NCBI GenBank assembly: GCA_027345185.1
Contig: DAHWIK010000038.1
Location: 1 to 48,997 of the forward strand
Source: Candidatus Micrarchaeota archaeon
GTDB lineage: Archaea > Micrarchaeota > Micrarchaeia > Micrarchaeales > CABMGC01
Length of the DNA: 48,997 nucleotides
Direction of reading: 5' to 3'
A model generated the notes under the pieces. The model did not search any database. It saw only the letters and a program-made list of their open reading frames with translations, and was not told where the DNA came from. Of this stretch, positions 20,979-41,310 are shown piece after piece; the stretch's first letter is position 1; each line of letters opens with the position of its first letter. A program made the translations under genes and the position numbers.

Positions 20979-22376
20979 ATGGCAAAGACTTATCTTGAAA
21001 TAGTAAAGTATATGGTTGAAGCTAAATTCAACATAGACGGAGTTGTGGACAAGCCTGACATAATAGGCGCAGTCTTCGGACAGACAGAAGGGCTCCTCGG
21101 AAACGAACTGGACCTCAGGGAGCTGCAGAAGAACGGCAAGATCGGAAGGATCGAGATAGATGTGCAGCAGTCGTCAAACAAGACCTTCGGCAAGCTTCAT
21201 CTTCCGGCCTCTCTGGACAGGATAGAGACATGCAAACTCGCAGCCGCAGTGGAGTCTGTGGACCGCGTAGGACCATACGAGGCGCAGTTTTCAGTTGACA
21301 AGGTTGAGGATACAAGGTCGGAGAAGAGGAGGAAGATACTTGCAAGGGCAAAGGATCTGCTCAAGAAGCTTCTTGATACTGAGATACCCGACAGCAAGGA
21401 GATATCTGAGATGGTATCATCGGATGTAAAGGCCAGCGAGATAGCCGAGTTCGGACCTGAGAAGCTAGCGGCAGGGCCAGACATAGCCTCCTCAGAAGAG
21501 GTTATAATCGTGGAAGGCAGAGCAGACGTTCTCAACCTGCTAAGGAATGACATAACGAACGCAATAGCTGTGGGAGGCGCGGCAAGCAACATACCAAAGA
21601 CCATAGTCGACCTGATAAACCAGAAGGACGCAACGCTCTTCCTAGACGGGGACAGGGGAGGAGACATGATTGCAAGGTCAATACTCAATGTAGCCGAGGT
21701 GGACTATATAGCCAAGGCTCCGGACGGGAAGGAGGTCGAGGATCTCACCAGGAAGGAGATAATCAAGTCAATGAGGACAAGGGTTCCTGTAGATCAGTAC
21801 AGGGGGCTGGGGACAAGCGGTGGCGGGCCTAACCAGAGGTTCCAGAGGAGGCCTGAACAGCAGGGCTACAGGCAGGCGCAGCAGCAGGCGGCAAAGCCTG
21901 AATCCAGGCCGGAGCCTAGGCAGCATGAGCCTCAAAGGCCAGTCCAGCAGCCAACCCCCACAGTATCTTCGGTGGTTGAAGACGACCAACCAGCATCAAG
22001 GATAGAATCAGTGAGCTACGAACCAGCGTCAAGGCTAGGAAAAGCAGAGGCAAAGCCTCAGGCGCCTGTTCTCGAAGCGCAGGTACTGGCCCAGCTATCA
22101 AGCAGTCTTGACGAGCTTTCAGGAACTCTCAGGAGCAGGCTGTACGACAGCGCCGGCAACGTGATAAAGGAGATGCCGATAAGGGAGCTCCTTTCGGAGA
22201 TGGACTATTCTAACGGGGTATATGCGGTTGTGCTCGACGGAGTAATAACGCAGAGGCTTGTTGAGCTCGCCCTGCAGAAGAACATAAGGGCGGTGTACGG
22301 GATAAAGGCGAATCCTCTTACAAGGAAGTTCCACGACATACTGCTATACACCAAGGAGCAGGGAAAGATCTCCTGA
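20979..22376 (+). CDS. dnaG: Archaeal DnaG primase-like protein (TOPRIM; exosome-associated DnaG)
   Basis: N-terminal KFNIDGVVDKPDIIGAVFGQTEGLLG and the TOPRIM blocks IIVEGRADV and FLDGDRGGD. It carries a Gln/Pro-rich linker. Confidence 0.88.
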   Translation: MAKTYLEIVKYMVEAKFNIDGVVDKPDIIGAVFGQTEGLLGNELDLRELQKNGKIGRIEIDVQQSSNKTFGKLHLPASLDRIETCKLAAAVESVDRVGPYEAQFSVDKVEDTRSEKRRKILARAKDLLKKLLDTEIPDSKEISEMVSSDVKASEIAEFGPEKLAAGPDIASSEEVIIVEGRADVLNLLRNDITNAIAVGGAASNIPKTIVDLINQKDATLFLDGDRGGDMIARSILNVAEVDYIAKAPDGKEVEDLTRKEIIKSMRTRVPVDQYRGLGTSGGGPNQRFQRRPEQQGYRQAQQQAAKPESRPEPRQHEPQRPVQQPTPTVSSVVEDDQPASRIESVSYEPASRLGKAEAKPQAPVLEAQVLAQLSSSLDELSGTLRSRLYDSAGNVIKEMPIRELLSEMDYSNGVYAVVLDGVITQRLVELALQKNIRAVYGIKANPLTRKFHDILLYTKEQGKIS

Positions 22377-22395
22377 CAGGGCTTCCAGTGATGTG

Positions 22396-22908
22396 ATGTC
22401 GGATCCAGAGGAATTTGAGATAGCAAAGCACGTAATCTCATGCCTTAATTCAACTCCGTTAGCGGTGCTTTCTACTAGGGACAAGGATGCGGTCTGGGGA
22501 ACCCCTGTCTACTTCATACACGATGATGAATTCAACTTCTACATACTCTCAAACTCAAAGAGCAGGCACTACAGGGACATAAAGAGAGACTCAAAGGTTG
22601 CGCTTGTCATAACCATGCCTCCAGACCAGTCAAACGGCTTCGAGGTGGGCATACAGATTGCAGGCACTGCATCAGAGGTATCGGAAAATAGGATGGAAGA
22701 GATATACAGGCTTAGGAGCTCAAGGATCACCGGAGACGGCGCCTACTTTTTCGACTCAAACGGAGCTCAGGTGATAAAGAACGAGGGCGGCGCATTCATA
22801 AAGATAGTCCCAAAGCTCGTAATGTACCTTGACAGGAGGTATCATGGCCCGAATAGCAGGAAGGTCTCGATAAAGAGGCTCGTCCAGCTGAGCAAATACA
22901 TAAGGTAA
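22396..22908 (+). CDS. Pyridoxamine 5'-phosphate oxidase-like FMN-binding split-barrel protein
   Basis: LAVLSTRDKDAVWGTPVYFIHDDEFNFYILSNSKSRHYRDIKRDSKVALVI is typical of the PNPOx-like family. Confidence 0.6.
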   Translation: MSDPEEFEIAKHVISCLNSTPLAVLSTRDKDAVWGTPVYFIHDDEFNFYILSNSKSRHYRDIKRDSKVALVITMPPDQSNGFEVGIQIAGTASEVSENRMEEIYRLRSSRITGDGAYFFDSNGAQVIKNEGGAFIKIVPKLVMYLDRRYHGPNSRKVSIKRLVQLSKYIR

Positions 22909-22943
22909 AATCAGTAAGCAGTAGCACCCAACTGAAAGTACGT

Positions 22944-24659
22944 TCAGCACTTCCTTTTCCTAATTTCATCGTTTAGCTGGGTTACGAAGTCCTCAAGCTT
23001 CTGCTGGTTCTTCTGGGTTCCGTCCCTCATCCTTACCGATATGGTCTTTGCCTCGGCCTCGTTTCTCCCAAGTATTATTGTGTAAGGCGTCTCCTTCATC
23101 TTGGCATCCCTTATCTTGTACTGCAGGGTCCTGTCGGATATGTCCAGATTGGCGCGGATACCTCCCTCCTTCAGCATCTTGTAAACCTCCTCGGCATAGC
23201 CGCTCACCTGTTCCGATATCGATACGACAACCACCTGCGTGGGCGCCAGCCATGTGGGGAACTTTCCATGAAGATGCTCAACCAAGACTGCAATGAATCT
23301 CTCCACAGAACCCAGAGCAGCCCTGTGGATTATCACCGGGGTGTGCTGCTTTCCATCCTCGCCTGTATATTCAATCCCGAATCTCAACGGCTGCTGGTAA
23401 TCAACCTGCATTGTTGCGCATTGCCACGCCCTTCCCATGGAGTCATATACGTCGAAATCTATCTTCGGACCGTAGAATGCCCCCTCCTTATCCTTCACCT
23501 CGTACTTCATGCCGCTTCTTTCAAGCGCCTGCCTGAGCGACTTGGTGGCCTTATCCCACAATGCTTCGTCTCCCATATGGCTGTCTGGCATTGTGGATAG
23601 CTTTGCAACGAATTTCATGCCGAATGTATCGTAAACGGTCTTTACAAATTCAAGGAACTTCTCAACCTCGTTCTCCACCTGGTCCTCTGTGAGGAATATG
23701 TGGCCGTCGTCCTGGGTGAGCTCCATGACCCTGAACAGCCCCGTAAGCGCGCCGCTGACCTCCTTCCTATACAGCTTGTCGAACGTCGCGGTCCTGAATG
23801 GAAGGTCCCTGTAGCTCCACTTCCTTGATTTATATATCAGTATTGTGGAAGGGCAGCTCATGGGCTTCAAGCCAAGTTGGCCCATGTCCGTATCAAACAT
23901 AAACATGTTTTCTTTGTAGTGGTCGTAATGACCGCTTACATGCCAAAGGGCCGTGTTCGCAATTACGGGCGTGCTTGTCTCCTCGTACCCATATTGCTCT
24001 TCAAGCTCCCTTATGAATTTTATGATCTGCCTGTACACGGTATTGCCGTTTGGATGCCAGTATACCATCGATGGTGAGACCTCCTGAAAGCTGTAAAGGT
24101 CGAGCCTCTCGCCTATGGTTCTGTGGTCCGTTTCCGGAAGGCCTGACCAGTCGCTCTTTCTTACAATTGCAGTGTTCACCTCTACTGGCTTTGCCTTATT
24201 GTATATCTTCTGCGGCTCATCTATGCCATAACTTCTTGACTGCTCTGCCAGCGGATGACCCTTGACGTCGACGCTCATCTTCTTGGTCCACCCAAAAGGT
24301 GCCTTCCTCACATCATAATCCTTGGAGAAATGCTTGTACATGTGGTCAAGTATCTTCATGGCATGATTTGGCGATTCAAGATTGTTGCTCAAGTGGGCAA
24401 ACGGATAGATGAGCACGCTCCTCCTCGACAGCTTCTTCATGAAATCCTCGGTATCCTTGATCGACTGGTCTGCCATGTGGATTGTGTCTCCCTTCTCCAC
24501 GCTGACGAATATTACAAGTATGTTGTCCAGCGAGATCTTCTCCTTCTTGGCATCCTCGTATATGCTTGCCTCAGGAGCTATTGGCTCATAGGTTATGTTG
24601 TTTGCATCCATCTGAAGTATCTTCAATAAAGCACCGACCACACGATAATAATCAGCCAT
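22944..24659 (-). CDS. thrS: Threonyl-tRNA synthetase with the archaeal-type N-terminal editing domain
   Basis: Editing-domain blocks VIFVSVEKGD, VLIYPFAHLSNNL and KAPFGW..KGHPLAEQSR. Class II core blocks FRVMELTQDDGHIF and HRAALGSVERF. A C-terminal anticodon-binding domain is present. Confidence 0.9.
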   Translation of the reverse strand: MADYYRVVGALLKILQMDANNITYEPIAPEASIYEDAKKEKISLDNILVIFVSVEKGDTIHMADQSIKDTEDFMKKLSRRSVLIYPFAHLSNNLESPNHAMKILDHMYKHFSKDYDVRKAPFGWTKKMSVDVKGHPLAEQSRSYGIDEPQKIYNKAKPVEVNTAIVRKSDWSGLPETDHRTIGERLDLYSFQEVSPSMVYWHPNGNTVYRQIIKFIRELEEQYGYEETSTPVIANTALWHVSGHYDHYKENMFMFDTDMGQLGLKPMSCPSTILIYKSRKWSYRDLPFRTATFDKLYRKEVSGALTGLFRVMELTQDDGHIFLTEDQVENEVEKFLEFVKTVYDTFGMKFVAKLSTMPDSHMGDEALWDKATKSLRQALERSGMKYEVKDKEGAFYGPKIDFDVYDSMGRAWQCATMQVDYQQPLRFGIEYTGEDGKQHTPVIIHRAALGSVERFIAVLVEHLHGKFPTWLAPTQVVVVSISEQVSGYAEEVYKMLKEGGIRANLDISDRTLQYKIRDAKMKETPYTIILGRNEAEAKTISVRMRDGTQKNQQKLEDFVTQLNDEIRKRKC

Positions 24660-24744: not shown

Positions 24745-24767
24745 GTCATGTGGCACGATGTGAATCT

Positions 24768-25001
24768 ATGAAGAAAGGTCAGACTACAGAGAAGAGAAAG
24801 TACACAACAATAACAATACCTACAAGATTATTCGAAAAGATACAGGAAAGGATAAAGGATACCGGGTTCTCATCAGTATCCGATTACGCCACATATATAT
24901 TGCGTGATACGCTTGCAGACATGGCCATGGGCAAAAAGAAGGGCAACAGTGAAACTGGCAACGTAGTTGAGAAGCTCAGGGCTTTGGGTTACGTGGACTG
25001 A
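24768..25001 (+). CDS. Ribbon-helix-helix (CopG/Arc/MetJ-like) DNA-binding protein with a CysD-like C-terminal tail
   Basis: KYTTITIPTRLFEKIQERIKDTGFSSVSDYATYILRDTL shows a beta-alpha-alpha RHH pattern. The C-terminus is VVEKLRALGYVD. The ORF is open from a GTG at 24750. Confidence 0.65.
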   Translation: MKKGQTTEKRKYTTITIPTRLFEKIQERIKDTGFSSVSDYATYILRDTLADMAMGKKKGNSETGNVVEKLRALGYVD

Positions 25002-25108: not shown

Positions 25109-25852
25109 GTGATCAGGGAGGCAAAGTCAAGATTCAAGAATGTGGCTGCACTATGGAGCATGGGCAAGGACAGCACTGCAATGCTTTCCATAGCAAGAAA
25201 GGCGTTTCTGGGCAAAGTGCCATTCCCAGTAATACATATTGACAACTCGATCGATTTTCCTGAAACATACCAATTCAGGGAGAACCTCGAGAGGATGTGG
25301 AAGCTTGACCTTATAGTAGAAAAGAGCAAAATAAAGCCAAACTTATCCGGCGCAGCATGCTGCGGCGCGAACAAATCCGCAGCACTCAAGAAGGTCATGT
25401 CAAAATACGGATTCGATGCCCTGATAGTGTCGATAAGGAGAGATGAGCATGCAATAAGGGCAAAGGAAAGATACATGTCCCCAAGGGACGAGCACTTCAG
25501 GTGGAACTACAGGGACCAGCCTGCGGAGATGTGGGGCGACTATTCACAGAGCCCGGATTCAAAGGGGCACATAAGGGTGCATCCGCTGCTCGATTTCAAT
25601 GAGATTGACATATGGCAGTACATACAGAAGAACAAGGTGCCAGTGAATCCTCTCTATTTTTCAAGGAATGGATTCAGGTACAGAAGCCTTGGATGCACGC
25701 GCTGCACATCTCCAGTCAGGTCAAATGCGAATAATGTCAAGGAAATAATAAAAGAGCTCGAAACCACCACTGTCGAGGAGAGATCGGGGCGTGACCAGGA
25801 TAAGGAACAGGAGTATTCAATGCAGAAACTGAGAGAATTAGGGTACATGTAA
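25109..25852 (+). CDS. cysD: Sulfate adenylyltransferase subunit 2 (CysD, PP-loop ATP pyrophosphatase). Its true N-terminus probably lies upstream of the annotated GTG
   Basis: WSMGKDS PP-loop, HIDN..FPET, RRDEHAIRAKER, IRVHPLLDF..DIWQYI, RYRSLGC, ERSGR and a C-terminal KLRELGYM. All are collinear with E. coli CysD as I remember it. Confidence 0.8.
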   Translation: MIREAKSRFKNVAALWSMGKDSTAMLSIARKAFLGKVPFPVIHIDNSIDFPETYQFRENLERMWKLDLIVEKSKIKPNLSGAACCGANKSAALKKVMSKYGFDALIVSIRRDEHAIRAKERYMSPRDEHFRWNYRDQPAEMWGDYSQSPDSKGHIRVHPLLDFNEIDIWQYIQKNKVPVNPLYFSRNGFRYRSLGCTRCTSPVRSNANNVKEIIKELETTTVEERSGRDQDKEQEYSMQKLRELGYM

Positions 25853-25861: not shown

Positions 25862-27097
25862 ATGCGGATAAATAGGATAGTTGTCTTGGGCAACAAGGAC
25901 CATGGCAAATCCACTATTATAGGCAGCATGCTCATAGCAACAAAATCCGTTTCCGAGGAAAGGGTAAAAGAGGCAAGAAGGCAGAGCAAGAGGCTTGGAA
26001 AGAGGTTCGAGCCGGGCTTCATACTAGACAGCTTTTCCGCAGAACGCGAAGGCGGGCTGACAATCGACGCGTCAATGGCGCAGATAAAATACAGAGACTC
26101 TGCGTTCGAGCTCATAGACGTGCCGGGCCATGAGGAGCTGATAAAGAACATGGTAAGCGGGGCATCATATGCCAAGTTCGCCATTCTGGCAGTATCAGCT
26201 AAAAGAAGTGAGGGAATCTGCCCGCAGACAAAGAGGCACGTTTTCCTTGCCAAGATGCTCGGCATAAATAACATAATAGTAGCAGTAAACAAGATGGATA
26301 CTGTCGGATACAGCGAGAGCAGGTTTAATGAGCTAAAGCATGAGCTATGCATATTCTTGGATAGAATTGGAATAGAAAGCAAAAATGTCAAGTTTGTGCC
26401 GATATCCGCTTACAATTCAGATAATCTTGCAAGCGTATCAAAAAATATCCGGTGGCACTCAGGCAAGTCACTGCTTGAAGAGATGAGAATCCTGTCAAAA
26501 CACGGAAACGATGCGGCATCTGATGGAAATCTGCGGGTCATACTACAGGGAAGCATGATGCACGGAACAGATTCCCTGCTTATAGGAAATGTTGCAAGTG
26601 GGACAGTAAAGGCCGGCAGCATGGTAAGGATACTGCCCATCGGAACAGCATCAAGGATAAGCACGCTGTTTGTAAAAGGCCAAAAGAGAAGATATGCAAA
26701 TGCCGGAGAAAATGTTGCCATAAAGCTCGATAGTCAAGTTAGCGCCGATTTAAGGGGCGCAGTGGTATACAACTACGACTACAAAAATGCGAACGTTGCA
26801 AACCATTTAGATGCACTAATCTTCATGACCAAGAAGATCAAAGTAGGCGTGTCAATAAAGTTCAACGGAATCGAGCTCAATGGAAAGGTAAAGATAAAGA
26901 CGGTGATTGACACTGCAGATGGCTCAGAAAACGGTCCAAAGCATGAACAACCTCTGAACGCCGCAGTTGTCCGCATAGAGCTCGAACACGGAGTACCCGC
27001 AGAGCCGTTCAACTCTTCAAAAGAGCTTGGCCGATTCGTGCTTTATCAGGCAGGCAAATTTTCAGGAATCGGGATAATAAGCTCGGTCTCAAAATAA
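25862..27097 (+). CDS. cysN: CysN-type translational-family GTPase (sulfate adenylyltransferase subunit 1-like, no APS kinase domain)
   Basis: G1 GNKDHGKST, AEREGGLTID, G3 DVPGHEE and G4 NKMD. The PQTKRHVFLAKMLGINNIIVAVNKMD and FVPISAYNSDN blocks are collinear with E. coli CysN. Two beta-barrel domains follow. Confidence 0.78.
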   Translation: MRINRIVVLGNKDHGKSTIIGSMLIATKSVSEERVKEARRQSKRLGKRFEPGFILDSFSAEREGGLTIDASMAQIKYRDSAFELIDVPGHEELIKNMVSGASYAKFAILAVSAKRSEGICPQTKRHVFLAKMLGINNIIVAVNKMDTVGYSESRFNELKHELCIFLDRIGIESKNVKFVPISAYNSDNLASVSKNIRWHSGKSLLEEMRILSKHGNDAASDGNLRVILQGSMMHGTDSLLIGNVASGTVKAGSMVRILPIGTASRISTLFVKGQKRRYANAGENVAIKLDSQVSADLRGAVVYNYDYKNANVANHLDALIFMTKKIKVGVSIKFNGIELNGKVKIKTVIDTADGSENGPKHEQPLNAAVVRIELEHGVPAEPFNSSKELGRFVLYQAGKFSGIGIISSVSK

Positions 27098-27114: not shown

Positions 27115-27441
27115 TTACATTCCGCGTAGCCTAAGCATAAGGGCTCTTGTAATTAAGAAGCGTTCATTTCCCAGTACACTTGCTACTTTCTCGTTTTCGT
27201 AATCCCTAACCAGCGAATGTATCCCTTTTCTCTGTGCCTGCTTTATCTTCCCTTCCGGTGAGTCATCCAGGATATACCCAGGATTCTCATGTATCCTGTC
27301 ATTCGGATCAGGTATCCAGGATCTATTGTCCAGATAAACTATGGCTTTCAGTGCTTCCGACGGCTTGCCTGACTCAAGTGACCTTCTCACCGATTCCACA
27401 GAGAACCTCTCGCTCCTTTTCTCGCTCATTTTTTGAAACAT
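27115..27441 (-). CDS. Hypothetical 108-aa protein downstream of the CysH-fold gene
   Basis: ORF only, with no recognisable motif. It lies 84 nt downstream of the preceding same-strand gene and is convergent with cysN. Confidence 0.4.
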   Translation of the reverse strand: MFQKMSEKRSERFSVESVRRSLESGKPSEALKAIVYLDNRSWIPDPNDRIHENPGYILDDSPEGKIKQAQRKGIHSLVRDYENEKVASVLGNERFLITRALMLRLRGM

Positions 27442-27525: not shown

Positions 27526-28320
27526 TTAGGTGTAACCCAAAGCCCTGAGCTTCTTCATCACCCTCTCCCTTGCAACTCCCCTTCCTGCTCTTTCATGCAT
27601 TCCAGGGTTCTTGTTAGGCGTGGTGTCGATCGTGGAGCCCAGTGAAGTATAACCTCTGTCATAAAGCGGATGGTATGGGAGCTTGTTTGATTTTATGTAC
27701 TCGATCACGTTCTCCCTTCTCCAGAACAGCAGCGGATGCACTCTTATATGAACTGGATTGTGCCTGACAGAGAACAGGTTTTCCTTTGCCCTCTCCTCAT
27801 GCTCAGTTCCTCTTATGCCGTTAATGAAGGCGTCAAAGTCCAGTGTCCTTATCCCTCTGTTAAGGGGCTCTATTTTATGGTATTTATTGAATTCCAAAGT
27901 AAATCTAGGCGTTCCCTTTCCGTATTTTTTTGTAAATTCCCCAAGTCTGTCCTTTCCGGCCCTAACAGTAGTAAGGCTCTCAATGTTCCATTCCGTCCTA
28001 ATCCTTTCTATAAAACCTGCCGTTTCTGGGAATTCGTATCTAGTATCAACGAACAGCACTGGCACATCTGGCTTGAGCTGCAATAGCATATGCAACAGCA
28101 CTTCGCTGTCAGCTCCACCGCTGAACCCTACGCCCACATTCCTATATCTCCTGATCGCTTCCTTAATCACTTCCCTGCTCTTCTTCACTTTCTTTTCCAA
28201 AGGCCAGTCAATCATTGCCTTTATCTCAGGCTTCATCAGGTCTATGCATCTCTGGGTCCTGTCGCTTCCAAATTCATCTGCAGGGGGGCTGTTGGGTTCC
28301 GCTTCGTTTTTATTTGACAT
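27526..28320 (-). CDS. PAPS reductase (CysH)-fold PP-loop protein lacking the catalytic C-terminal Cys motif and carrying a CysD-type tail
   Basis: FSGGADS PP-loop. KPDVPVLFVDTRYEFPET, KIEPLNRGI and LPYHPLYDRGYTSLGS are collinear with E. coli CysH. The C-terminus is ERAGRGVARERVMKKLRALGYT where CysH has ECGLH. Confidence 0.75.
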   Translation of the reverse strand: MSNKNEAEPNSPPADEFGSDRTQRCIDLMKPEIKAMIDWPLEKKVKKSREVIKEAIRRYRNVGVGFSGGADSEVLLHMLLQLKPDVPVLFVDTRYEFPETAGFIERIRTEWNIESLTTVRAGKDRLGEFTKKYGKGTPRFTLEFNKYHKIEPLNRGIRTLDFDAFINGIRGTEHEERAKENLFSVRHNPVHIRVHPLLFWRRENVIEYIKSNKLPYHPLYDRGYTSLGSTIDTTPNKNPGMHERAGRGVARERVMKKLRALGYT

Positions 28321-28461: not shown

Positions 28462-30759
28462 ATGGGCACCAATTTGAAGCACAAAATAAAAGAGCATGTA
28501 TCGGCTGCAAAGCCATACTGCAAGCCATTTCTGATATACCTTGCAATATCCCTGGTCATGTTCTGGCAGGTTACAGCGAATATATTCGGTTATGTGGTGA
28601 ACGGCCACGGAGACGTATACCAGAGCCTGTTCAACCTATGGTGGGCTCCGTATTCGGTTTTTATGCTGCACCAATCACCATATTTCACCAATCTCCTGTT
28701 TAGTCCTATCGGTGCAAATCTTGCCACACAAACATTAATGCCGCTGGCAGGGATTATCACCGCTCCACTGCAGCTTGTCAGCCCTGCATTTGCCTACAAT
28801 GCGCTCTTCTTCAGCAGTTTTGCGCTGTCTGGCATATTCATGTTCTATCTTGCAGAATATCTGCTCAAGAACAGATACGCGGCTTTCATAGCTGGACTTG
28901 TCTACGCCTTTGCTCCGATGCACATAGCCCAATCCTACATCCACCTTGACTGGACCATAATAGAATGGATCCCGTTATTACTCCTGTTCTATATTAAAAC
29001 CATAAATGAGCGCAAGATGAAATATGCCTTCTTGGCTGCCGTTAGTCTAGTACTTGCAACCTTCATGGGAGACATTGAGCAGGGGATAATGGCATCATTG
29101 GCCATAGCCTTATTCACGATACTGTACTTCGTATTTAATCGGAAGGACATACTGGGCCAGCTTCGGCCATATCTTACCTACATATGCTATTTCCTAATGT
29201 TTACTTTTGTAATGTGCATCCCATTCCTTATTGCCATGCTTCCTTACCTAAACGGCAACGCCTTATCCACCGCGCAGCAGGGCTCCAGTACCTTGAGCAA
29301 CATGCTTGAGAGCAACAATCTCCTCTCATTTTTCCTTCCGAGCTATTACAACGGGATTTTCCATTCCCTATCCTTGTCGTATGCTCCTGATATATACTCG
29401 TTGACTTCTGCTGGGATTACATACCAAACCACAGTGGCCACATCGCACGGGTTCGAGTACATAATGAACATAAATGAGCGCGTTTCGTATATCGGATATA
29501 CTGTTCTTGCATTGACAGCCGTTGGCCTGTACTCTGATTTCAAGAAGAACAAGCTTCAGCACCTTGGAATATGGCTTGTGCTAGGAATAATATTTGCCTG
29601 GCTATCCCTTGGGCCTTACATACAGATAGGCAGCGATATAACCGGCATACCATCATTATACCTCATTTATAAATATATCCCAATTCTCAACATAATAAGA
29701 GAACCGGGGAGATTTGACCTGATATTTACCCTCTGCCTGGGAATAATGGCCGCATTCGGGTTCCAGCACCTAGTAAAGGATAAGGGCGGAAAAGCCGCAT
29801 TCAGGTACGCTGCCATAATATCTATACTAATACTTATAGAATACAACGGCATGCCTCTGTCAGGATCTTTTGCAAACTCCCTGATAACTTCCACCAGGGT
29901 GCCATCGGTGTACAATGAACTTGGAAATATAACCAAAAACTTTTCAGTCCTTATACTGCCCGCCCTTGCAAACACATCGTCATCGCCAGTCCAGTACCCT
30001 GGCCTTGAGACATACTACGTATCCGTGCTTCATAAGCCGATAATGGGGGGATATACAAGCAGGGAAAACAGCAGCCAAACAAGCTCAATAAGCGAAATAC
30101 CACTAGCAATCTCTGCTACTGCACTGGAAGAGGGCAGAGGATTGGCATACGCATCGCCCATAAATGAAAATGAAAGCAATGTGACTCTGTTCTGGCTTGC
30201 CAATTCTAACGTCCATTTCGTTTCAGTAATAAGATCTGCATACAACGGCTCTGAGCAGCAACAGCTATACGCGTACCTGAGTGGCTTATTCGGCCAGCCG
30301 GTCTACCAAGACAATTCTACATATGTTTTCGGGACCAGCGGGGCAATTTCAAGATCCATGGGCAAATCATCAATCGCATATCTTATAGGAAACTGGACCT
30401 ACGGCAGTACCATCCTGGGCCCATCGTTTTGCAACCAGAACCTGCAGTGCAACCCAACAAACGCAAATGCCTGGTGGGGGTTCAATCCGAGGGGCATGGA
30501 GATATTTTCTCCAGAAACAGAAAAAACCCGCATCTCCTTTTCGGTGCACACCTATTTGCAGAATAACACAAACTTAGAGATCGCCCTAAATAACGAGGTT
30601 ATCGGCAATGTCAATTTGTACACGACACCGGAAGAGTATTCGCTGAATGTCACATTATCAAAAGGATTTAATGAGCTGGAATTTTATGACCCAAATTTGA
30701 TTATCCCAACCCAAGCCCAGTATATAACTTATGGCATAGAAAACATAACGATAATATGA
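28462..30759 (+). CDS. Polytopic membrane protein with a large C-terminal extracytoplasmic domain (GT-C-fold glycosyltransferase-like, YfhO/PMT/ArnT-like)
   Basis: More than 10 predicted TM helices over about 450 aa. An acidic motif (NGHGDVYQ) sits in the first loop. The ~300-aa soluble C-terminal domain carries sequons. Confidence 0.45.
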   Translation: MGTNLKHKIKEHVSAAKPYCKPFLIYLAISLVMFWQVTANIFGYVVNGHGDVYQSLFNLWWAPYSVFMLHQSPYFTNLLFSPIGANLATQTLMPLAGIITAPLQLVSPAFAYNALFFSSFALSGIFMFYLAEYLLKNRYAAFIAGLVYAFAPMHIAQSYIHLDWTIIEWIPLLLLFYIKTINERKMKYAFLAAVSLVLATFMGDIEQGIMASLAIALFTILYFVFNRKDILGQLRPYLTYICYFLMFTFVMCIPFLIAMLPYLNGNALSTAQQGSSTLSNMLESNNLLSFFLPSYYNGIFHSLSLSYAPDIYSLTSAGITYQTTVATSHGFEYIMNINERVSYIGYTVLALTAVGLYSDFKKNKLQHLGIWLVLGIIFAWLSLGPYIQIGSDITGIPSLYLIYKYIPILNIIREPGRFDLIFTLCLGIMAAFGFQHLVKDKGGKAAFRYAAIISILILIEYNGMPLSGSFANSLITSTRVPSVYNELGNITKNFSVLILPALANTSSSPVQYPGLETYYVSVLHKPIMGGYTSRENSSQTSSISEIPLAISATALEEGRGLAYASPINENESNVTLFWLANSNVHFVSVIRSAYNGSEQQQLYAYLSGLFGQPVYQDNSTYVFGTSGAISRSMGKSSIAYLIGNWTYGSTILGPSFCNQNLQCNPTNANAWWGFNPRGMEIFSPETEKTRISFSVHTYLQNNTNLEIALNNEVIGNVNLYTTPEEYSLNVTLSKGFNELEFYDPNLIIPTQAQYITYGIENITII

Positions 30760-30871: not shown

Positions 30872-32338
30872 ATGAAGAAACTTTACATGATTGGAATAGA
30901 CGCGGTTCCTTTATGGATACTTGAGCAGCTTAGGAAGGAGAAGGGCCTGGGGATATTCGATAAGATGCTTAAGGACGGCACCATTGTGGACATGGAATCA
31001 ACGCTGCCTCCGATGACCGGCCCTGCCTGGCCCACGATATACACTGGCCTTAAGCCAGGCGAGCATGGAGTTCCGGATTTTTTCACGATGAGCAGGGACT
31101 ACACTCCGGATCTGGCATTCTATGACTCATACAGTGTGCCTCCATTCTGGAAGAAGCTGGCAGAAGATGGGAAAAAGTGCCTCTTGATAACTCCTGCAAC
31201 AGACATAACGCTTCCTGACTATGCGAATGTAGACATGATAACCGGATTTCCGCTTCCTGCAAAGTCGAACACAAAAGAACTCAGGAGCCTGATGAAAAAG
31301 TACAAATTTAAAGGGGAGCCTGACATAGAAGCGGACATAAAAAGCGGGAAGATGAGCATAGACGAGGCTGTAAGGGAATTTATCAGGAGCATAAGGGCAA
31401 GGGTATCGATAGCCAAGGAGATGATGGCCCAGAAAGACTACGATTTTATCTATGTCTGCTTTACAGAGACGGACAGGATACAGCATTTCATAATGGGAGA
31501 AAAGAACATGAAGGAGCACATACTTCCAATATACGCGGAGCTTGCGTCATTCGTGGATGACATTGCCAAGTCTGCGGAGAAAGAGGGCTCGCTTATGATC
31601 GTAGTATCGGATCATGGAATGCAGCCTATAAAGGGCAAATTCCTTATAAATTCTTGGATGGTCAACAACGGATATGCCAGATTTAAGGAATCTTTCGCAA
31701 ATTCAATGAAGGGCTCAGGAAAAGAGGGCTCAATATCATACAGCGTAAGAGAGAAGCTGCTCAAGACAAAACTTAGGAAGGTATATGATAAGATGCCTCA
31801 TCAGGTGAAGAGGGCCACGTTCAAGATGATGGGGTCAGCGTTTTCAGGGTCTGCGTCAGGAGAGTATGTAAGGATGCATCTCTTTGATCTTGACATGGGT
31901 GTCACAAAAGCCTTTGCAGCCATAGCAAACGAACCTGTGTCGACAATATGGATAAACGACGAGCGCTTCTCCAGCCCTACTGTCAGCAAAAAAGATAAGG
32001 ATAAACTTAAGTCAGAACTGATAAGCGGCCTGAAAAAGGTAAAAACCCCAGAAGGCGAACAGCTCATAGTCGATGTGATCGATGGTGACTCATATTACGG
32101 GAAAACCAAAAAGTTCATGGCTCCAGACCTGTTCATAGAGGCCAGGAAGGGCTACACCATAGACCTGTTTTACTACTCAACGAGCACGAACTTCATGAGG
32201 CCGGAAGGCGCCAAGAGCGGTGACCACCTGAGGAGTGGCATATTCGGATACTATCCGAAGACATTCAAGATCGACACAAAAGGCATGAACGTGGCCGATG
32301 TAATGCCGACAGTGCTTAGATACTTCAATTCAGGATAG
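30872..32338 (+). CDS. Alkaline-phosphatase superfamily enzyme (type I phosphodiesterase / nucleotide pyrophosphatase family)
   Basis: IGIDAVP, STLPPMTGPAWPTIYTGLKPGEHGV and VVSDHGM are metal-ligand and nucleophile blocks of this family. No signal peptide. Confidence 0.7.
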   Translation: MKKLYMIGIDAVPLWILEQLRKEKGLGIFDKMLKDGTIVDMESTLPPMTGPAWPTIYTGLKPGEHGVPDFFTMSRDYTPDLAFYDSYSVPPFWKKLAEDGKKCLLITPATDITLPDYANVDMITGFPLPAKSNTKELRSLMKKYKFKGEPDIEADIKSGKMSIDEAVREFIRSIRARVSIAKEMMAQKDYDFIYVCFTETDRIQHFIMGEKNMKEHILPIYAELASFVDDIAKSAEKEGSLMIVVSDHGMQPIKGKFLINSWMVNNGYARFKESFANSMKGSGKEGSISYSVREKLLKTKLRKVYDKMPHQVKRATFKMMGSAFSGSASGEYVRMHLFDLDMGVTKAFAAIANEPVSTIWINDERFSSPTVSKKDKDKLKSELISGLKKVKTPEGEQLIVDVIDGDSYYGKTKKFMAPDLFIEARKGYTIDLFYYSTSTNFMRPEGAKSGDHLRSGIFGYYPKTFKIDTKGMNVADVMPTVLRYFNSG

Positions 32339-32351: not shown

Positions 32352-33563
32352 GTGAAGGTACTCATAATGGATCTTGGATCAAAGTTCAACGAATTCGGAG
32401 GCCAGGCGCGGATCGCGGCAATTCTCAACAAGAAGCTCAGCAGGTACTTCAGGACATATTATCTCGGATATTCCACCTCTTACTCGAACGGGATGAAGCG
32501 CCCCATATTCATCAAGAGGGGAAAGACCCTAGGCGTATCCGTAAGGAAGAGTGGCATAAGCGAGATGTGGGTTCCCAGGTTCGCATACAACCTGTTCATA
32601 GTCCACAGGATGGCCGACCTTGACAAGGAGTCGCTTCTGTCAAAGGTAAAGGCGATAGGCCCTGACGTCATTATTGCCAATTCAATACAGGACATAAATC
32701 TGCTCAGGTTCTTCAGGAAGCGCGGATTGGGCTTCAAGTCCGTCTACATAGACCACGGCAGCGTCTCCACAAGCATAAACGGCTATCTTTCAAAGGAGGG
32801 GATACCCCTCACCGTGGGCACCGGCATAAACTCCTTGACCGTCTCGCAGAAGAAGGGCAAGTTCTTCAATTTCTACGACGTTAACGTGGCGCTTAACCAC
32901 GAACAGCTGAAGAGCATGTGCAATTTCACTGATAGGGTAGCCCTGATCCAGAACGGACTGAACATAAAGCCTGGAAAAGATGCATCAATAGAGCGCAGGT
33001 TCAGGAAAAAGTTCGGGATAAAGGCAAATGATTTTGTAGTGCTGTACATCGGCAGGATGTTCGACAGGCAGAAAAATGTAGGCGCGCTCATACGCGCGTT
33101 CATGGGCGCGGAAGGCAAGCGCCTCAAGCTCCTGCTGGTTGGTGAAGGGCCGTCGCTTTCGGGCTACAAAAGGCTTGCAGAAGCAGACAAAAGGGTCATA
33201 TTTGCCGGAAGCGCAAAAGAGGGCGAGATAAGTGCCATATACAGCATATCCAATCTCTTTGTCCTGCCGTCGTTTTGGGAGGGCTTCAGCCTTACCATAA
33301 TCGAAGCTGCGTCGCACTCGCTTCCCATGGCGCTATCTGATAATGCATACATAGAGGACCTTAAAGGTAATGGAATAGGGGAGATAACCTCGTTCAACCC
33401 AAACAGCGAGTCGGAGATAAGGGATAGCATACTAGAGCTCTACAGAAACAGGGCAAAGAGAGCCAGGGCCGTAAGTGCGTCAATCAAGATAAAAGAGATG
33501 TTCACGGAGAAGAGGATGGTGGAGAAATACAGGGATCTACTTGAAAAATTGGCAAAATCCTAG
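32352..33563 (+). CDS. GT4-family (GT-B fold) glycosyltransferase
   Basis: LPSFWEGFSLTIIEAASHSLP (E-x7-E motif). The GTG start is preceded by GAGGTGA at 32341-32347. Confidence 0.8.
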   Translation: MKVLIMDLGSKFNEFGGQARIAAILNKKLSRYFRTYYLGYSTSYSNGMKRPIFIKRGKTLGVSVRKSGISEMWVPRFAYNLFIVHRMADLDKESLLSKVKAIGPDVIIANSIQDINLLRFFRKRGLGFKSVYIDHGSVSTSINGYLSKEGIPLTVGTGINSLTVSQKKGKFFNFYDVNVALNHEQLKSMCNFTDRVALIQNGLNIKPGKDASIERRFRKKFGIKANDFVVLYIGRMFDRQKNVGALIRAFMGAEGKRLKLLLVGEGPSLSGYKRLAEADKRVIFAGSAKEGEISAIYSISNLFVLPSFWEGFSLTIIEAASHSLPMALSDNAYIEDLKGNGIGEITSFNPNSESEIRDSILELYRNRAKRARAVSASIKIKEMFTEKRMVEKYRDLLEKLAKS

Positions 33564-33564: not shown

Positions 33565-34395
33565 CTAGACGAATGCAATGCTTGAATATGAGACCACAGA
33601 ATCGTAGTCCCCGGTCACATTCCCGGAATTAGAGTATTTGAGCAGGATTCCCTCCTTTGCGCCTCTGTTCTTTGCGAACATCGCAGACACCGTTATGGGG
33701 CCGTATCCGCATGCGCTGTCATCCAGTTCCTCTATCTTCCCGTGGAATTGCTCGAACCTAAGCCCTTTTAGCTCCTCTATGGCCTGCATGTCCTTTTCCT
33801 CAGCAATCTTCGCCGGTTCATAATGGTCGAAGTCCGAGCTGGCAATTACTACGATATTCCTGCCCAGCCTCTTTGCCCCTTTCAATATTGCCGAAGAGAG
33901 CATCATGCAGTAATCAAGGGACTGGTTGCCCATGCATACAAAGCAGCATCTGGGACGTTCAACTACCCTCTGAAGAAAAGGAAGCTGGACCTCAACCGAG
34001 TGCTCCAGACTATGCGCTTCTTCGTCTATAGATATCCTTTCAGATTGCAATGCAATCTCATTTGATAGCTCAAGGTCATTGTCTACCAAACCAAGTGGAG
34101 TATTCCAATCAGCCATGGAAACCGAGACAGGATACCCCAGCCCTGTGTGGTTTGGGCCTATGATGACAAATGTATCTATCTTGTCAAGATCCTTTTTCAT
34201 TGATAAGGCCTTGTAAGTGAAGGCCGCAACCTGCCCAGAATACCTGTATCCTGCGTGCGGCGCAACATATGATACTGCATCTCCCACCGAATTACCGGAA
34301 AGCCTCGCATTGCCAAGGAAGCCGTCGATCTCTTCCTTAAGCTTTTCACTGCGCCCAGTATAAAAGGCATTGGCCACTGCAGGTTCGCGTTGCAT
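33565..34395 (-). CDS. MEMO1-family protein (AmmeMemoRadiSam system protein B-like)
   Basis: PAVANAFYTG, YVAPHAGYRYSG, IIGPNH and EHSVEVQLPFLQ blocks. Confidence 0.8.
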   Translation of the reverse strand: MQREPAVANAFYTGRSEKLKEEIDGFLGNARLSGNSVGDAVSYVAPHAGYRYSGQVAAFTYKALSMKKDLDKIDTFVIIGPNHTGLGYPVSVSMADWNTPLGLVDNDLELSNEIALQSERISIDEEAHSLEHSVEVQLPFLQRVVERPRCCFVCMGNQSLDYCMMLSSAILKGAKRLGRNIVVIASSDFDHYEPAKIAEEKDMQAIEELKGLRFEQFHGKIEELDDSACGYGPITVSAMFAKNRGAKEGILLKYSNSGNVTGDYDSVVSYSSIAFV

Positions 34396-34431
34396 GAAAA
34401 CACATTTTAATATGAACTTCAGATTACTTAT

Positions 34432-35079
34432 ATGCCTTCTGATAAATACATAACGACAGTCCTGATGCGGCTTTCAAGAAGGTATGGGTACAGTCCAAGG
34501 ACCAAGCTTGCCCACGTAAGCATGTGCGAGCTCTTTGTTGCGGTATTCCTATCACCCCAATCAACAGACGCACAGATCAACAGGGCAACTGCGCAGCTGT
34601 TCAGAAAATTCAGGAGCTTTGAAGACTATGCAAATTCAGACCAGGGGACACTCCAGAGATACCTCAGCAGCGTAAATTTCTACAAGACAAAGGCAAGAAA
34701 TCTTAGGAGGTCAGCCAAGATGATACTTGAAAGATTCCACGGGGAGGTTCCGCGCAGCCTGAACGAGCTCATGGAGCTTCCAGGCGTAGGCAGAAAAGTT
34801 GGGAACGTAATACTGAATGAAGGATACAATATCGACGAAGGGATAGCCGTCGACACTCATGCCGGAAGAGTGGCAAGGAGGCTTGGCTTGTCAAGGCACA
34901 CAGACGCAAACAAGGTGGAGCAGGACCTTCTCGTAAAGATACCGCGGAAGGCGTGGGGAAGGGCCTCGAACCTTCTCATAGAATTGGGCAGGGACGCATG
35001 CACGGCAAGGAACAAGGAGTGCTTCCGGTGCGTCCTTAATGACATATGCCCTAGCAGTGACGTTAAGAAAAGTCCGTGA
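34432..35079 (+). CDS. nth: Endonuclease III (HhH-GPD DNA glycosylase with a 4Fe-4S cluster loop)
   Basis: LMELPGVGRKVGNVIL HhH, the VDTH catalytic-Asp context, and C-x6-C-x2-C-x5-C (CTARNKECFRCVLNDIC). Confidence 0.88.
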   Translation: MPSDKYITTVLMRLSRRYGYSPRTKLAHVSMCELFVAVFLSPQSTDAQINRATAQLFRKFRSFEDYANSDQGTLQRYLSSVNFYKTKARNLRRSAKMILERFHGEVPRSLNELMELPGVGRKVGNVILNEGYNIDEGIAVDTHAGRVARRLGLSRHTDANKVEQDLLVKIPRKAWGRASNLLIELGRDACTARNKECFRCVLNDICPSSDVKKSP

Positions 35080-35081
35080 AC

Positions 35082-35930
35082 TCAATTTCGCCGCAGGCCG
35101 GAGAGCACATCAAGCAGGCATTCAGTGGATTCAAGATGGTGCTTGACTATCCTTTGGTCTCCTGCCCTTCCAAGAAGCCACTCCCCAACATTCTTGTCGT
35201 GGTTTGCAGGCACTATCACAGTCCCATTCCCGGCAAGTGCGGCATCGAATGCAGGCCTGTCGTTGTCTCCATCCCCGTATACAGTGAATCTGTCAATGCC
35301 AATACCGAAGAGTTCAGACATGAACCTTATTGCACGCGATTTATCTGCCCCTTTGTGGTTTATGTCAATGAGCGTATGGCTATAGGTAGTGAATAGCCTA
35401 TCCTGAACTTCAAAAGGCAGAGTTGCTACAAATCCAAATACTGCATCCCTGAAATCTGCCATCTGCACGTTTTCAGGCTTATGGTATGTCGCCATCGTAA
35501 GCTTTCCATCGGATTTCTCATAGCCCGGGAACTCGCTGTCAAGAAATGCCTCTATCTTCGGAGCGACCTGCTTGATTATGAAATCTGCCTCTTCCTGAGG
35601 GATCAACAGCCTTAGCTTGCCGGAAGGCGCTCTTGGATCATAAAGAACTCCTGCATTCTCTGCGAAAAGTGGCGCACCGCTTTCATCCGACCATGGCTTT
35701 GCCCTGGATATCCTGCTTCCTGTTACAGTGGCGAACCTACATTGCGTCACGCCAAGCCCTCTAACGAGTTCAGCTGCCTTGAGCACAAGCGGATCTTCTA
35801 TGTAGTTCTTTAGGTGATCTGGAACTATAGATCCATCAAAATCCGCAGCTATGATGCCTGTCTTCCTCAGTGCCACTGATAGGTCTGTATGCCCATGCGC
35901 AAATACCTGCCCTGCCTTAAGCTGTGCCAT
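35082..35930 (-). CDS. HAD-superfamily (IIB-like) sugar-phosphate phosphatase
   Basis: Motif I is DFDGS and motif IV is GDGDNDRPAF. There is a large cap insertion. Confidence 0.7.
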   Translation of the reverse strand: MAQLKAGQVFAHGHTDLSVALRKTGIIAADFDGSIVPDHLKNYIEDPLVLKAAELVRGLGVTQCRFATVTGSRISRAKPWSDESGAPLFAENAGVLYDPRAPSGKLRLLIPQEEADFIIKQVAPKIEAFLDSEFPGYEKSDGKLTMATYHKPENVQMADFRDAVFGFVATLPFEVQDRLFTTYSHTLIDINHKGADKSRAIRFMSELFGIGIDRFTVYGDGDNDRPAFDAALAGNGTVIVPANHDKNVGEWLLGRAGDQRIVKHHLESTECLLDVLSGLRRN

Positions 35931-36235
35931 AAAATTCCCATTAAAAACAATGCATTATGTGATATAAAAAGTTTGCCTTTTGAACTCCCTATCAGAACAG
36001 ATTGCATACTCCTGCAATACTTATCTCCAGCTCACCGAGATCGGTATTCTTCCCTAGTTTTCAGATAGTGGGCGCTGTTTTCCTCTACCCTTGCAGGGCC
36101 CGCGCTGTCAGCAGCAAGCTCATTTAATTCCGGCAAGGAAGCCCACAACCATTTATGGGTATGCGAGATCACCTCTGGCCACACTTAAATGGTCAAATTT
36201 ACAGCCAACCAGCTAAAACTGTTCATTTTAGCCAT

Positions 36236-36243
36236 ATTTATAT
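36236..36243 (+). promoter_or_regulatory. TATA-like box (TTTATATA) about 27 nt upstream of the ATG at 36267
   Basis: Read directly. This supports 36267 as the start rather than the ORF-track start at 36189. Confidence 0.45.
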
Positions 36244-36266
36244 ATCAAAAAAGCCCACAATATGTT

Positions 36267-36950
36267 ATGTCAACAGCAGAGTTTAAGGTGAAGGCAGATC
36301 GCATTCAATCCCAGTTGGAGAGGGGCAGCATAGTCTGTGCTAAAGATGCATGGACCATGCTTTTTGACAATTGGACCGACGCAGGCCTTAAGTCTGAAAT
36401 AGCCGCAGCATTGAGGTCTGGAATCAAGGATTCGGTTGCCAGGCCCTCTTCTGGTGCAGCGCATGCGGATTATGGGATACGTGGATTGGGTTCGCTATCA
36501 GAAGATACGCTAACTGCAATAGTCATGTCGGGCGGATATGAGATGTCAAGATACTTCTATCCCTGCCTTAAGGAAGCAGGGATTTCAAGCAACTTCGTGA
36601 TGATAGGGTACTCCTCAGGCGCCACCAATCACACGCGCGCAAAGCTGTTCTCCGACGGCACTGAAATGACCGGAAAGATATTTGTACTAGAGGAAGACCT
36701 CCATGCCTTGATGGAAAGCAGCAATGTGCTCTTCATCGACGATTATATCGAGACCAGGGTGACCCTTACTGCAATAGGAGATGCACTGATAAGGATGGGA
36801 TATTCTGGCAAGATGAATGAGATGGATTTTTCAGGCCATGTGCGTGACTGGTCCTACAAGCTGCTTGTGCCTGACATAGAGCTACCGTCTAGGGACAGGA
36901 TGGTGATGACCGAAAACGGCATCGCCCTAAAGGAAACGGAGAGGAAGTGA
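36267..36950 (+). CDS. Hypothetical protein with a degenerate phosphoribosyltransferase-like motif
   Basis: VLFIDDYIETRVTL resembles the PRPP-binding loop of the PRT fold, but several consensus positions are not met. Confidence 0.45.
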   Translation: MSTAEFKVKADRIQSQLERGSIVCAKDAWTMLFDNWTDAGLKSEIAAALRSGIKDSVARPSSGAAHADYGIRGLGSLSEDTLTAIVMSGGYEMSRYFYPCLKEAGISSNFVMIGYSSGATNHTRAKLFSDGTEMTGKIFVLEEDLHALMESSNVLFIDDYIETRVTLTAIGDALIRMGYSGKMNEMDFSGHVRDWSYKLLVPDIELPSRDRMVMTENGIALKETERK

Positions 36951-36957
36951 GCTGCAG

Positions 36958-40235: not shown

Positions 40236-40280
40236 GCGTTTAGAGGGTGGGGAAGGACAAATAGAAAATTCTCTAAACGC
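40236..40280. other. 10-bp perfect stem (GCGTTTAGAG / CTCTAAACGC) with a 25-nt G/A-rich loop in the lon-mscS divergent spacer
   Basis: Read directly. Confidence 0.6.
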
Positions 40281-41309: not shown

Positions 41310-41310
41310 T

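Follow-up and report, generated by a model that had tools for sequence, protein, structure and literature searches.

What does a protein do that has the body of a sulfonucleotide reductase and lacks the cysteine on which such a reductase depends? This question is raised by a gene at positions 27526..28320 (minus strand) of a 48,997-nucleotide stretch of Candidatus Micrarchaeota DNA (contig DAHWIK010000038.1), which we refer to in its entirety as the window. The 264-aa open reading frame (ORF) encodes a protein of the PAPS_reduct fold (Pfam PF01507) that carries a CysD-type tail and has no ECGLH, the motif that holds the essential cysteine of CysH, the reductase of 3'-phosphoadenosine 5'-phosphosulfate (PAPS) or adenosine 5'-phosphosulfate (APS). 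An earlier note, made from the letters of the sequence, took it for an adenylyl-transferring or ATP-pyrophosphatase enzyme of unknown substrate. From its sequence and its surroundings we lean towards the protein being a CysD-type sulfate adenylyltransferase that stands in for the ATP sulfurylase Sat and supplies APS for glycan sulfation; it resembles a sulfate-reducing enzyme and appears to bear the features that define the chemistry of a sulfate-activating one. The protein would bind ATP by a canonical PP-loop and move AMP onto sulfate, yielding APS and pyrophosphate (PPi). In DPANN archaea and some bacteria of the candidate phyla radiation (CPR) it would fill the place of Sat beside a CopG-like regulator and an enzyme of the alkaline phosphatase (AP) superfamily, and the APS would be used for the sulfation of cell-surface glycans.

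The match to PAPS_reduct is far past chance (E = 3.7e-44), and the motifs by which the protein had been called collinear with CysH are all present and in the order given: FSGGADS starts at residue 66, VLFVDTRYEFPET at 88, KIEPLNRG at 149, HPLYDRGYTSLGS at 217, ERAGRG at 243 and KLRALGYT at 257. Alignments with solved CysH structures end at ...ERAGRG, without ECGLH, and SGGADS aligns with SFGIQA of Escherichia coli CysH (FSGGADS against SFGIQAA). By alignment and motif table, the PP-loop FSGGADS (residues 66-72; 28105..28125, on the minus strand like the other elements of the gene) is of the canonical ATP-pyrophosphatase type. The family alignment identifies EHEERAKE (residues 173-180; 27781..27804) as the CysD-type 'DEH..RA.E' motif and, at the C terminus, HERAGRGVARERVMKKLRALGYT (residues 242-264; 27529..27597), in which the ER.GR arginines and an LR.LGY tail replace ECGLH. 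The protein scores under the cut-off of every NCBIfam CysH, APS-reductase and CysD model. Best among the curated models is the CysH model NF002537 (136.5 bits, cut-off 154); the other reductase models TIGR02057 (125, cut-off 254), TIGR00434 (116.5, cut-off 165) and TIGR02055 (98, cut-off 235) and the CysD models NF003587 (83.9, cut-off 195) and TIGR02039 (59.5, cut-off 396.6) follow, and weak PP-loop and TilS N-terminal matches were also found.

Is the protein an isolated oddity or a member of a family? A search of 5.8 billion proteins returned at least 220 relatives, of which the 120 listed are 54-87% identical to it; where a source is named, it is one of the Micrarchaeota or Nanoarchaeota or, in some cases, a CPR bacterium, and none carries an annotation beyond 'PAPS reductase (family)'. 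None of these 120 contains ECG, and in all but a few they end in the tail HERxGRG..RE..M..LR.LGY[TN], so that both the missing ECGLH and the CysD-like end HERAGRG...KLRALGYT, as the earlier note had read them, are traits of the family. Within it, E173-A178 are invariant and E180 nearly so, as are, without exception, K149, R244 and R247, which we take, from the structure of the Pseudomonas aeruginosa APS reductase, to be phosphosulfate-binding positions. The absence of a CC...CxxC cluster motif holds for the protein itself and for the iron-sulfur-free form (FN..SxxD) to which it belongs (104 of 172 family members), but not for the whole family, since 42 of the 172 carry a Cys-Cys or Tyr-Cys pair together with CxxC; intermediate forms make up the remainder. 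To judge by these residues, the split mirrors the pattern that separates APS reductases from PAPS reductases. The protein is thus one of a well-conserved, uncharacterised clade to which current annotation wrongly gives the name PAPS reductase. Neither the family nor the fusions of PAPS_reduct to AP-superfamily domains, to which we return below, were found described in the literature on PAPS reductases, DPANN, PAPS-independent sulfation and sulfated exopolysaccharides.

To which side of the superfamily does this clade belong? When 1.84 billion representatives were searched exhaustively with HMMER, 4477 matched, only 23 of them below 1e-30. Among the best 149 of the 4477, a CysD-type end (ER.GR..DKE..M..LR.LGY[FWM]) occurs in 68 and ECG[LI]H in about 35; a PAWEQ insertion we took, by motif alone, as the mark of canonical CysD, and the representatives that have it also have the tail. 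According to a motif table of about 150 representatives, the tail-type proteins mostly have a [ST]GG[KAT]DS PP-loop and DEHPARA.E or DEH..RA.E, whereas most ECG-type proteins have an SFGxxx loop and R(D/E)Q(S/T)..R, several of them carrying SFGKDS. With SGGADS and EHEERAKE, the 264-aa protein therefore has the ATP-type motif set. The earlier note had proposed a phylogenetic placement. A neighbour-joining tree of 144 representatives was comb-like, with saturated distances, and scoring of the core on profiles was used instead; from the tree we take only that the 42 leaves nearest to the family are 18 standalone proteins, 20 fusions, 1 PAWEQ-type and 3 unclassified proteins, with no ECG-type protein among them. 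With the tail removed, the core scores 205 bits on the tail-type profile against 180 on the ECG-type profile; for the core of a CysD-like paralog encoded nearby, described below, the values are 211 and 110. Structure prediction, also proposed before, gave a PAPS-reductase fold (AlphaFold2; predicted local distance difference test, pLDDT, 87.6, with residues 21-34 above 90), in which the tail is predicted as a helix at 243-260 (pLDDT 64-77) and the last 4 residues fall below 50. Foldseek ranked CysH and APS reductase first, then FAD synthase, then CysD (1ZUN). Motif, profile and structure results together therefore make the protein an intermediate, with a CysH-like body and CysD-like catalytic-site signatures. 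Lacking ECG[LI]H, scoring below the curated cut-offs and having an ATP-type PP-loop, it is not a conventional (P)APS reductase, as the earlier note had argued; since it also has DEH..RA.E, ER.GR and the LR.LGY tail, an adenylyl-transferring or ATP-pyrophosphatase enzyme is the best reading.

The substrate, which the earlier note had left unknown, can be narrowed, with sulfate as the likeliest, by comparison with the sulfate-activation genes of other archaea. In the window, a small protein resembling CopG and other ribbon-helix-helix (RHH) proteins, by homology a conserved partner and probably a regulator, is encoded at 24750..25001 (plus strand) and ends in EKLRALGYVD. Its RHH fold is weakly supported (RHH_1 matches 7 of 18 members, best E = 0.005). 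A profile of these CopG-tail proteins finds at least 1931 proteins, whose source names are CopG or Arc/MetJ RHH, and of the best 120, 116 close with LRALGYL[DE] or something very near it. The window protein is 52% identical to one encoded upstream of ATP sulfurylase on a Thermococcus contig (L070), where the order is CopG-tail, ATP sulfurylase (PF01747), DHH phosphoesterase, a Phosphodiest protein resembling nucleotide pyrophosphatases/phosphodiesterases (NPP-like), APS kinase and TauE; in a Thermoplasmatales genome, too, a CopG-tail gene lies upstream of Sat, DHH and APS kinase. The window also encodes, at 30872..32338 (plus strand), an NPP-like AP-superfamily protein of 488 aa (Pfam Phosphodiest, 1.2e-30) with Thr at the nucleophile position (PPMTGPAW), which is 25% identical to the NPP-like protein of the Thermococcus contig (E = 4e-21; NPP-like proteins overall are 25-30% identical). 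A conserved cluster of Pyrococcus yayanosii comprises a putative copG transcription factor, ATP sulfurylase, 3'-phosphoadenosine 5'-phosphate (pAp) phosphatase, a type I phosphodiesterase/NPP and APS kinase, with TauE adjacent; its authors speculate that the phosphodiesterase/NPP removes PPi, and no sulfotransferase was identified in that organism (PMC8268124). Sat-type ATP sulfurylase, APS kinase, DHH pAp phosphatase and TauE were not found among the window ORFs scanned, which span 22.4-48.8 kb (ORFs at 1-20 kb lie outside the scan). As CopG-tail and NPP-like genes flank the gene where other archaea have Sat, the pattern is one of non-orthologous displacement, and it is mainly for this reason that sulfate is the most likely substrate.

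Does the same company recur elsewhere? A scan of species-representative genomes yielded 51 loci, hosted by Micrarchaeota, Woesearchaeota, Pacearchaeota, Nanoarchaeota, Aenigmarchaeota, Parvarchaeota and a few CPR bacteria. Within 10 kb of the homolog, an AP-superfamily gene is present in 43 of the 51 (median gap 297 bp; same strand in 34), and 4 of the 8 loci without one are truncated contigs; a CopG-tail gene is present in 36 (median gap 72 bp). The AP partners are of two types. The first is PF00884-like, with arylsulfatase, choline sulfatase and phosphonate monoester hydrolase as best matches, and matches true sulfatases at E values of 1e-30 to 1e-20 as against 1e-10 to 1e-4 for LtaS and EptA; the second is NPP-like, as in the window, and has no sequence-detectable relative in the PDB. 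NPP-like orthologs adjoin the homolog in loci L016, L018-L022 and L064, and two or three AP paralogs are found per locus in L042, L048 and L063. The C/S-x-P-x-R formylglycine motif is in neither type, the formylglycine or nucleophile position being Thr in 39 of 44 partners and Ser in 5, and the partners fall far under the curated cut-offs. No N-terminal signal-like or membrane-spanning segment was evident in the partner sequences inspected by eye, with no predictor run. A formylglycine-dependent hydrolytic sulfatase was considered as the partner and ruled out on account of the missing motif and the Thr or Ser in its place.

More distant relatives carry the association within single proteins. 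Tail-type PAPS_reduct domains are fused to Phosphodiest (P0129, P0132, P0140), to Sulfatase, mostly with DUF4214 (P0134, P0135, P0138, P0174), and to an EF-Tu G-domain (P0147), the last followed by Sulfatase-like and Phosphodiest genes. From these fusions we conclude that the association of a tail-type PAPS_reduct protein with an AP enzyme, and occasionally with a CysN-like GTPase, is recurrent and old.

The C-terminal peptide itself, ...L(R/K)xLGY(x0-2), was observed to be common to the CopG-like regulator, the CysD-like paralog, the 264-aa protein and many archaeal APS kinases, including the one at 8741-9265 of the Thermococcus contig. Of 37 CopG-like proteins, 33 close with ...(K/R)L(K/R)xLGY followed by 0-2 further residues, and of 120 archaeal APS kinases, 69 close with ...ELGYL(P); within the window, an LGY-type end is limited to the CopG-like (24750-25001) and CysD-like (25109-25852) ORFs and the gene under study. 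We infer that the tail is a docking or regulatory peptide shared by sulfate-activation proteins. A mini-ORF of 38-40 aa adjoining the CopG-tail gene in L005/L006 (4258-4428, plus strand) consists only of an acidic linker and the tail (...EEDKEKMNKRLKALGYLD).

What would the APS be for? Epimerase ORFs of the GDP-mannose-dehydratase type occur in 25 of the 51 loci, aminotransferase and flippase genes in 11 each, and homologs of the window's family 4 glycosyltransferase (GT4) gene, counted within 10 kb, in 12; a larger ORF cluster containing glycosyltransferases (GTs) lies within 6 kb in 24. Radical-SAM and methyltransferase genes are further frequent neighbours. The fusion genes are likewise set in an ABC-2 exporter/GT cluster and a GT/flippase/Wzy (Wzx/Wzy) cluster. 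From the position of the module within loci for glycan assembly, we suggest that its APS would serve the sulfation of surface glycans.

Two roles for the AP partner can be envisaged. It would (a) hydrolyse PPi or otherwise pull an unfavourable equilibrium; fusions of Sat to a pyrophosphatase have reportedly been described in eukaryotes. Alternatively, it would (b) act as a sulfuryl transferase. Ser-substituted formylglycine sulfatases trap the sulfo-enzyme, which makes a sulfatase scaffold with Thr or Ser suited to transfer rather than hydrolysis. The second role fits the two to three AP paralogs per locus and the glycan context better, and the Thermococcales cluster fits the first. A bolder scheme, which we put forward tentatively and regard as doubtful in its entirety, would have DPANN and CPR organisms sulfate their glycans without PAPS or a classical sulfotransferase: the 264-aa protein, working independently of a GTPase, would hand APS to a sulfatase- or NPP-fold transferase whose Thr or Ser forms a stable sulfo-enzyme intermediate, with LRxLGY serving as a docking peptide and the regulator sensing enzyme occupancy. 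In L005/L006 a PHP-domain protein is encoded directly downstream of the homolog (6833-7603). Some PHP-family enzymes are pAp phosphatases, and the gene may be a sign that PAPS is used there.

A canonical CysD acts with the GTPase CysN, and the earlier note had suggested assays with the neighbouring GTPase. The window does encode such a pair. The CysD-like paralog (25109..25852, plus strand; 247 aa; tail QKLRELGYM; NF003587 274.5 bits, cut-off 195) is 30% identical to the 264-aa protein; it passes the CysD model yet bears APS-reductase-style cysteines (AACCGANK ... SLGCTRCT, a CC...CxxC arrangement), and we know of no canonical CysD with such a set. Its counterpart in L042 has none of these cysteines. 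Starting 10 nt past its stop codon, a CysN/EF-1alpha-like GTPase of 411 aa without an APS-kinase domain (25862..27097, plus strand; Pfam GTP_EFTU, 2.6e-41) has three domains and intact G1 (GNKDHGKS), G3 (DVPGH) and G4 (NKMD) motifs. It is under all curated cut-offs, including that of the CysN model TIGR02034 (228, cut-off 336), and scores slightly higher on EF-1alpha models than on CysN models. The GTPase gene lies 429 bp from the gene under study, on the opposite strand, and is paired with the CysD-like gene. Of the 51 loci, 1 has a CysN-like GTPase within 10 kb of the homolog, and 2 have a CysD-like gene at that distance. The syntenic locus L064, whose homolog is 79% identical, has the order DnaG, ThrRS, CopG-tail, homolog, NPP-like, GT4, Memo and HhH-GPD, and lacks four window genes: the CysD-like gene, the GTPase gene and two ORFs, of 108 and 765 aa, described below. 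Being absent there, the CysD-like/GTPase pair is a lineage-specific insertion; by gene order it entered directly downstream of the CopG-tail gene, recreating the order 'copG - sulfurylase'. A GTPase as general partner was accordingly rejected (it is paired with another gene, and missing in 49-50 of 51 loci and in L064), and the functional link that the earlier note had raised is weak. In L042, from a metagenome-assembled genome labelled Saccharibacteria, a single operon within a nucleotide-sugar and flippase cluster independently holds the CysD-like gene, the homolog, the GTPase gene and two sulfatase-like genes.

Several observations weigh against a sulfate adenylyltransferase. Curated hidden Markov models favour CysH (136 bits) over CysD (84 bits), structural comparison places CysH and APS reductases first, and the preference of the core for the tail-type profile is a modest 25 bits. 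Canonical CysD needs CysN, and no GTPase is nearby in 50 of the 51 loci, so the uphill synthesis of APS would need another driving force. Where a separate CysD-like/GTPase pair is encoded, in the window and L042, a second sulfurylase looks redundant. Sulfate transporter, APS kinase and classical sulfotransferase genes are not conserved neighbours across the 51 loci. Finally, a pure adenylyltransferase leaves a near-invariant cysteine, Cys25, unexplained.

This residue gives substance to a different proposal, unlikely in our view, that the protein is a sulfonucleotide reductase of variant type, or a sulfurylase and reductase in one, whose nucleophilic cysteine has been relocated from ECGLH to Cys25; the latter would attack APS to form S-sulfocysteine and then release sulfite, for example for sulfoquinovose-type sugars. 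Cys25 (28246-28248), in the N-terminal motif FGSDRTQRCIDLMKPE (residues 17-32; 28225..28272, minus strand; family alignment), is indeed the only cysteine of the protein, as had been noted, but it is more than a chance residue: of the 168 family sequences that cover the column, 167 have it, R21 is found in as many and L28-M29 in about all, and Cys25 sits in a family-specific, confidently modelled motif, F-x3-R-T-x2-C-x2-L-M-x-P-E. The earlier note's reservation that a conserved catalytic cysteine might have been missed is thus half borne out, by the near-invariance of Cys25; a reductase-like or other thiol-dependent step involving Cys25 may, on this conservation, take place. A relocated nucleophile is also in keeping with an overall sequence and fold nearest to CysH and APS reductase, with the invariance of K149 and R244/R247, presumably phosphosulfate-binding, with the CC..CxxC set retained by some family members and with the short-chain dehydrogenase/epimerase genes that are common nearby. 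However, the PP-loop is fully of the ATP type, unlike the SFG of most ECG-type proteins; in P0086, a full-length member, the Cys25 column is occupied by Arg; no conserved thioredoxin, sulfite reductase or identified sulfoquinovose synthase lies nearby, an example epimerase ORF resembling GDP-mannose dehydratase; and a reductase has no evident need for the AP-superfamily enzymes that are its conserved partners and fusions. The N-terminal Cys motif was not found in the wider tail-type relatives or in the fusions.

Of similarly low probability is an enzyme resembling FMN adenylyltransferase that acts on another oxyanion, X, making ADP-X, from which the Thr-nucleophile AP partner would move phospho-X to the glycan, a type of transfer that LtaS- and EptA-type enzymes perform from lipids. 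Such an enzyme would agree with the match of the fold to FAD synthases (8ron, 8rom, 3fwk) and with a partner nucleophile that is Thr or Ser and not formylglycine, as in NPP, LtaS and EptA, which handle phosphodiesters; the cytoplasmic glycan-cluster context and the lack of need for a GTPase at most loci agree as well. Yet it is to Sat, APS kinase and pAp phosphatase that CopG-tail and NPP-like genes are specifically linked in other archaea, it is CysD-like and CysN-like genes that accompany the module in the window, in L042 and in L063, and true sulfatases are a far closer match to the PF00884-type partner than LtaS or EptA are. The ER.GR element and the tail, moreover, are a signature common to canonical CysD.

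The presence of the protein and the CysD-like/GTPase pair together in the window and L042 suggests a further alternative, to which we give only slight credence: the protein would be an APS-consuming subunit that binds APS made by the pair, or by Sat, and works with the AP partner in presenting or transferring the sulfuryl group. CysH, which its core resembles, is an APS- or PAPS-binding enzyme, and the AP-domain fusions suggest a physical complex. Against this, no other sulfurylase lies within 10 kb in 49 of the 51 loci, L064 has the homolog, the CopG-tail gene and the NPP-like gene but neither a CysD-like nor a GTPase gene, and an intact ATP-type PP-loop would be superfluous for the binding of APS. 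A DNA- or RNA-modifying defence enzyme of the DndC, SspD or BrxP type, with the RHH protein binding DNA and the AP protein being PglZ-like, is highly improbable and was rejected: BREX type 4 does pair the PAPS-reductase-like BrxP with the AP-superfamily PglZ (PMC12839542) and a protein of DNA-binding type is conserved nearby, but the PADLOC matches are at the level of the fold (BrxP 3e-13, 46.9 bits over part of a 779-position model; SspD 3e-5, 21.7 bits), the AP partner, RHH protein and GTPase have none, no cysteine desulfurase, DndD/E or BrxC/L genes lie nearby, and the neighbours are glycan genes or, in other archaea, Sat and APS kinase.

The remaining genes of the window complete the picture of the locus. 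Downstream of the gene, a 108-aa ORFan (27115..27441, minus strand), uncertain in its reality, has no Pfam, NCBIfam or PADLOC match and no homolog in the 51 related loci, and may be no real gene. Between the gene and the NPP-like gene, a 765-aa hydrophobic protein (28462..30759, plus strand), known from its translation and likewise without a Pfam, NCBIfam or PADLOC match, is probably a polytopic membrane protein and may be a glycan-related membrane enzyme. The GT4 glycosyltransferase gene (32352..33563, plus strand; Pfam Glycos_transf_1, 9.4e-22) is syntenic in L064 and L065. The flanks (20979-24659 and 33565-48816) hold ordinary archaeal housekeeping genes, those scanned encoding a PNPOx-like protein, Memo, an HhH-GPD glycosylase, topoisomerase VI subunit A, LonB, an MscS-like channel and topoisomerase I, while a DnaG-type primase and threonyl-tRNA synthetase (ThrRS) were assigned from the annotated syntenic genes of L064. 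Such flanks fit a DPANN chromosome and not a mobile element. A viral collection contained one clear homolog only, on a predicted viral contig from IMG/VR (L066, 5959-6669; 47% identical across residues 41-264), and a BLAST search of that contig for the module genes gave only a weak GT4 match (210-1418, E = 6e-05); with a single clear viral homolog, the gene is not a typical viral auxiliary gene. Haloferax Agl7, involved in low-salt glycan sulfation, was taken up as a lead and dropped, since the paper does not state its family.

If the protein is indeed a sulfate adenylyltransferase, it would represent a third design of ATP sulfurylase after Sat and CysD/CysN, one that is short, CysH-shaped and usually without a GTPase nearby, and would explain how DPANN and CPR organisms with small genomes supply activated sulfate to their cell surface. 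Its pairing and fusion with sulfatase- and NPP-fold enzymes that lack formylglycine makes the latter candidates for the missing archaeal glycan sulfotransferase; the polysaccharide sulfotransferases of archaea were termed uncharacterised in a 2024 review (PMC11625862). Through the LGY tail that these proteins have in common, the working of the CopG-type regulator in archaeal sulfate-activation operons becomes open to experiment, and for a large clade the annotation 'PAPS reductase' is misleading.

How, then, does the protein compare with systems already known? The thioredoxin-dependent PAPS and APS reductases of the CysH type (1SUR, 2O8V, 6VPU, 2GOY) are its best match in sequence (E = 5e-26) and, with 6vpu, in Foldseek (E = 6.8e-17); they are of the same length class and share the conserved K-I/V-E-P and ER.GR elements. 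The protein differs from them in having no ECG[LI]H catalytic cysteine, in its SGGADS in place of SFGxxx, a degenerate P-loop that suits a phosphosulfate better than a triphosphate, and in its gene context. FMN adenylyltransferases/FAD synthases (3FWK, 8RON) share the fold and, on the reading proposed here, the transfer of adenylyl from ATP to an oxyanion, but the match is partial and much weaker (E = 1e-9 to 1e-13); the protein has no flavin-binding region, and FAD synthases lack its ER.GR/LGY tail. For its AP partners, the S1 formylglycine sulfatases and NPP phosphodiesterases are the models matched, the partners differing by the absence of C/S-x-P-x-R.

The P. yayanosii-type cluster (PMC8268124) shares with the locus a homologous CopG-LRALGY gene and an NPP-like gene. 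In contrast to that cluster, a PAPS_reduct-fold protein here replaces Sat, the module lies in glycan loci, and APS kinase, pAp phosphatase and TauE are not conserved neighbours. With CysD, the small subunit of CysDN (1ZUN), the protein shares the PAPS_reduct fold (Foldseek 1zun_A, E = 2.8e-10, root-mean-square deviation 2.4), the ATP-type PP-loop, DEH..RA.E, ER.GR and the LR.LGY[FMT] tail. Unlike CysD, it falls about 40 residues short of the models (294-317 positions), to which only its N-terminal part (residues 46-188) aligns, carries an additional Cys motif near the N terminus, as a rule lacks a CysN-like neighbour and is nearer to CysH in sequence. Dedication of such an enzyme to glycans has precedents: NodPQ is a CysDN paralog devoted to glycan sulfation, NodP being the CysD counterpart. 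CysDN paralogs with the same dedication are found in the Campylobacter jejuni HS:19 cluster (PMC8743553). Since the protein has the motifs of CysD but neither scores above the threshold of its models nor, at most loci, has a GTPase gene nearby, we propose that it be regarded as an enzyme that works like CysD, and not as one that is CysD.

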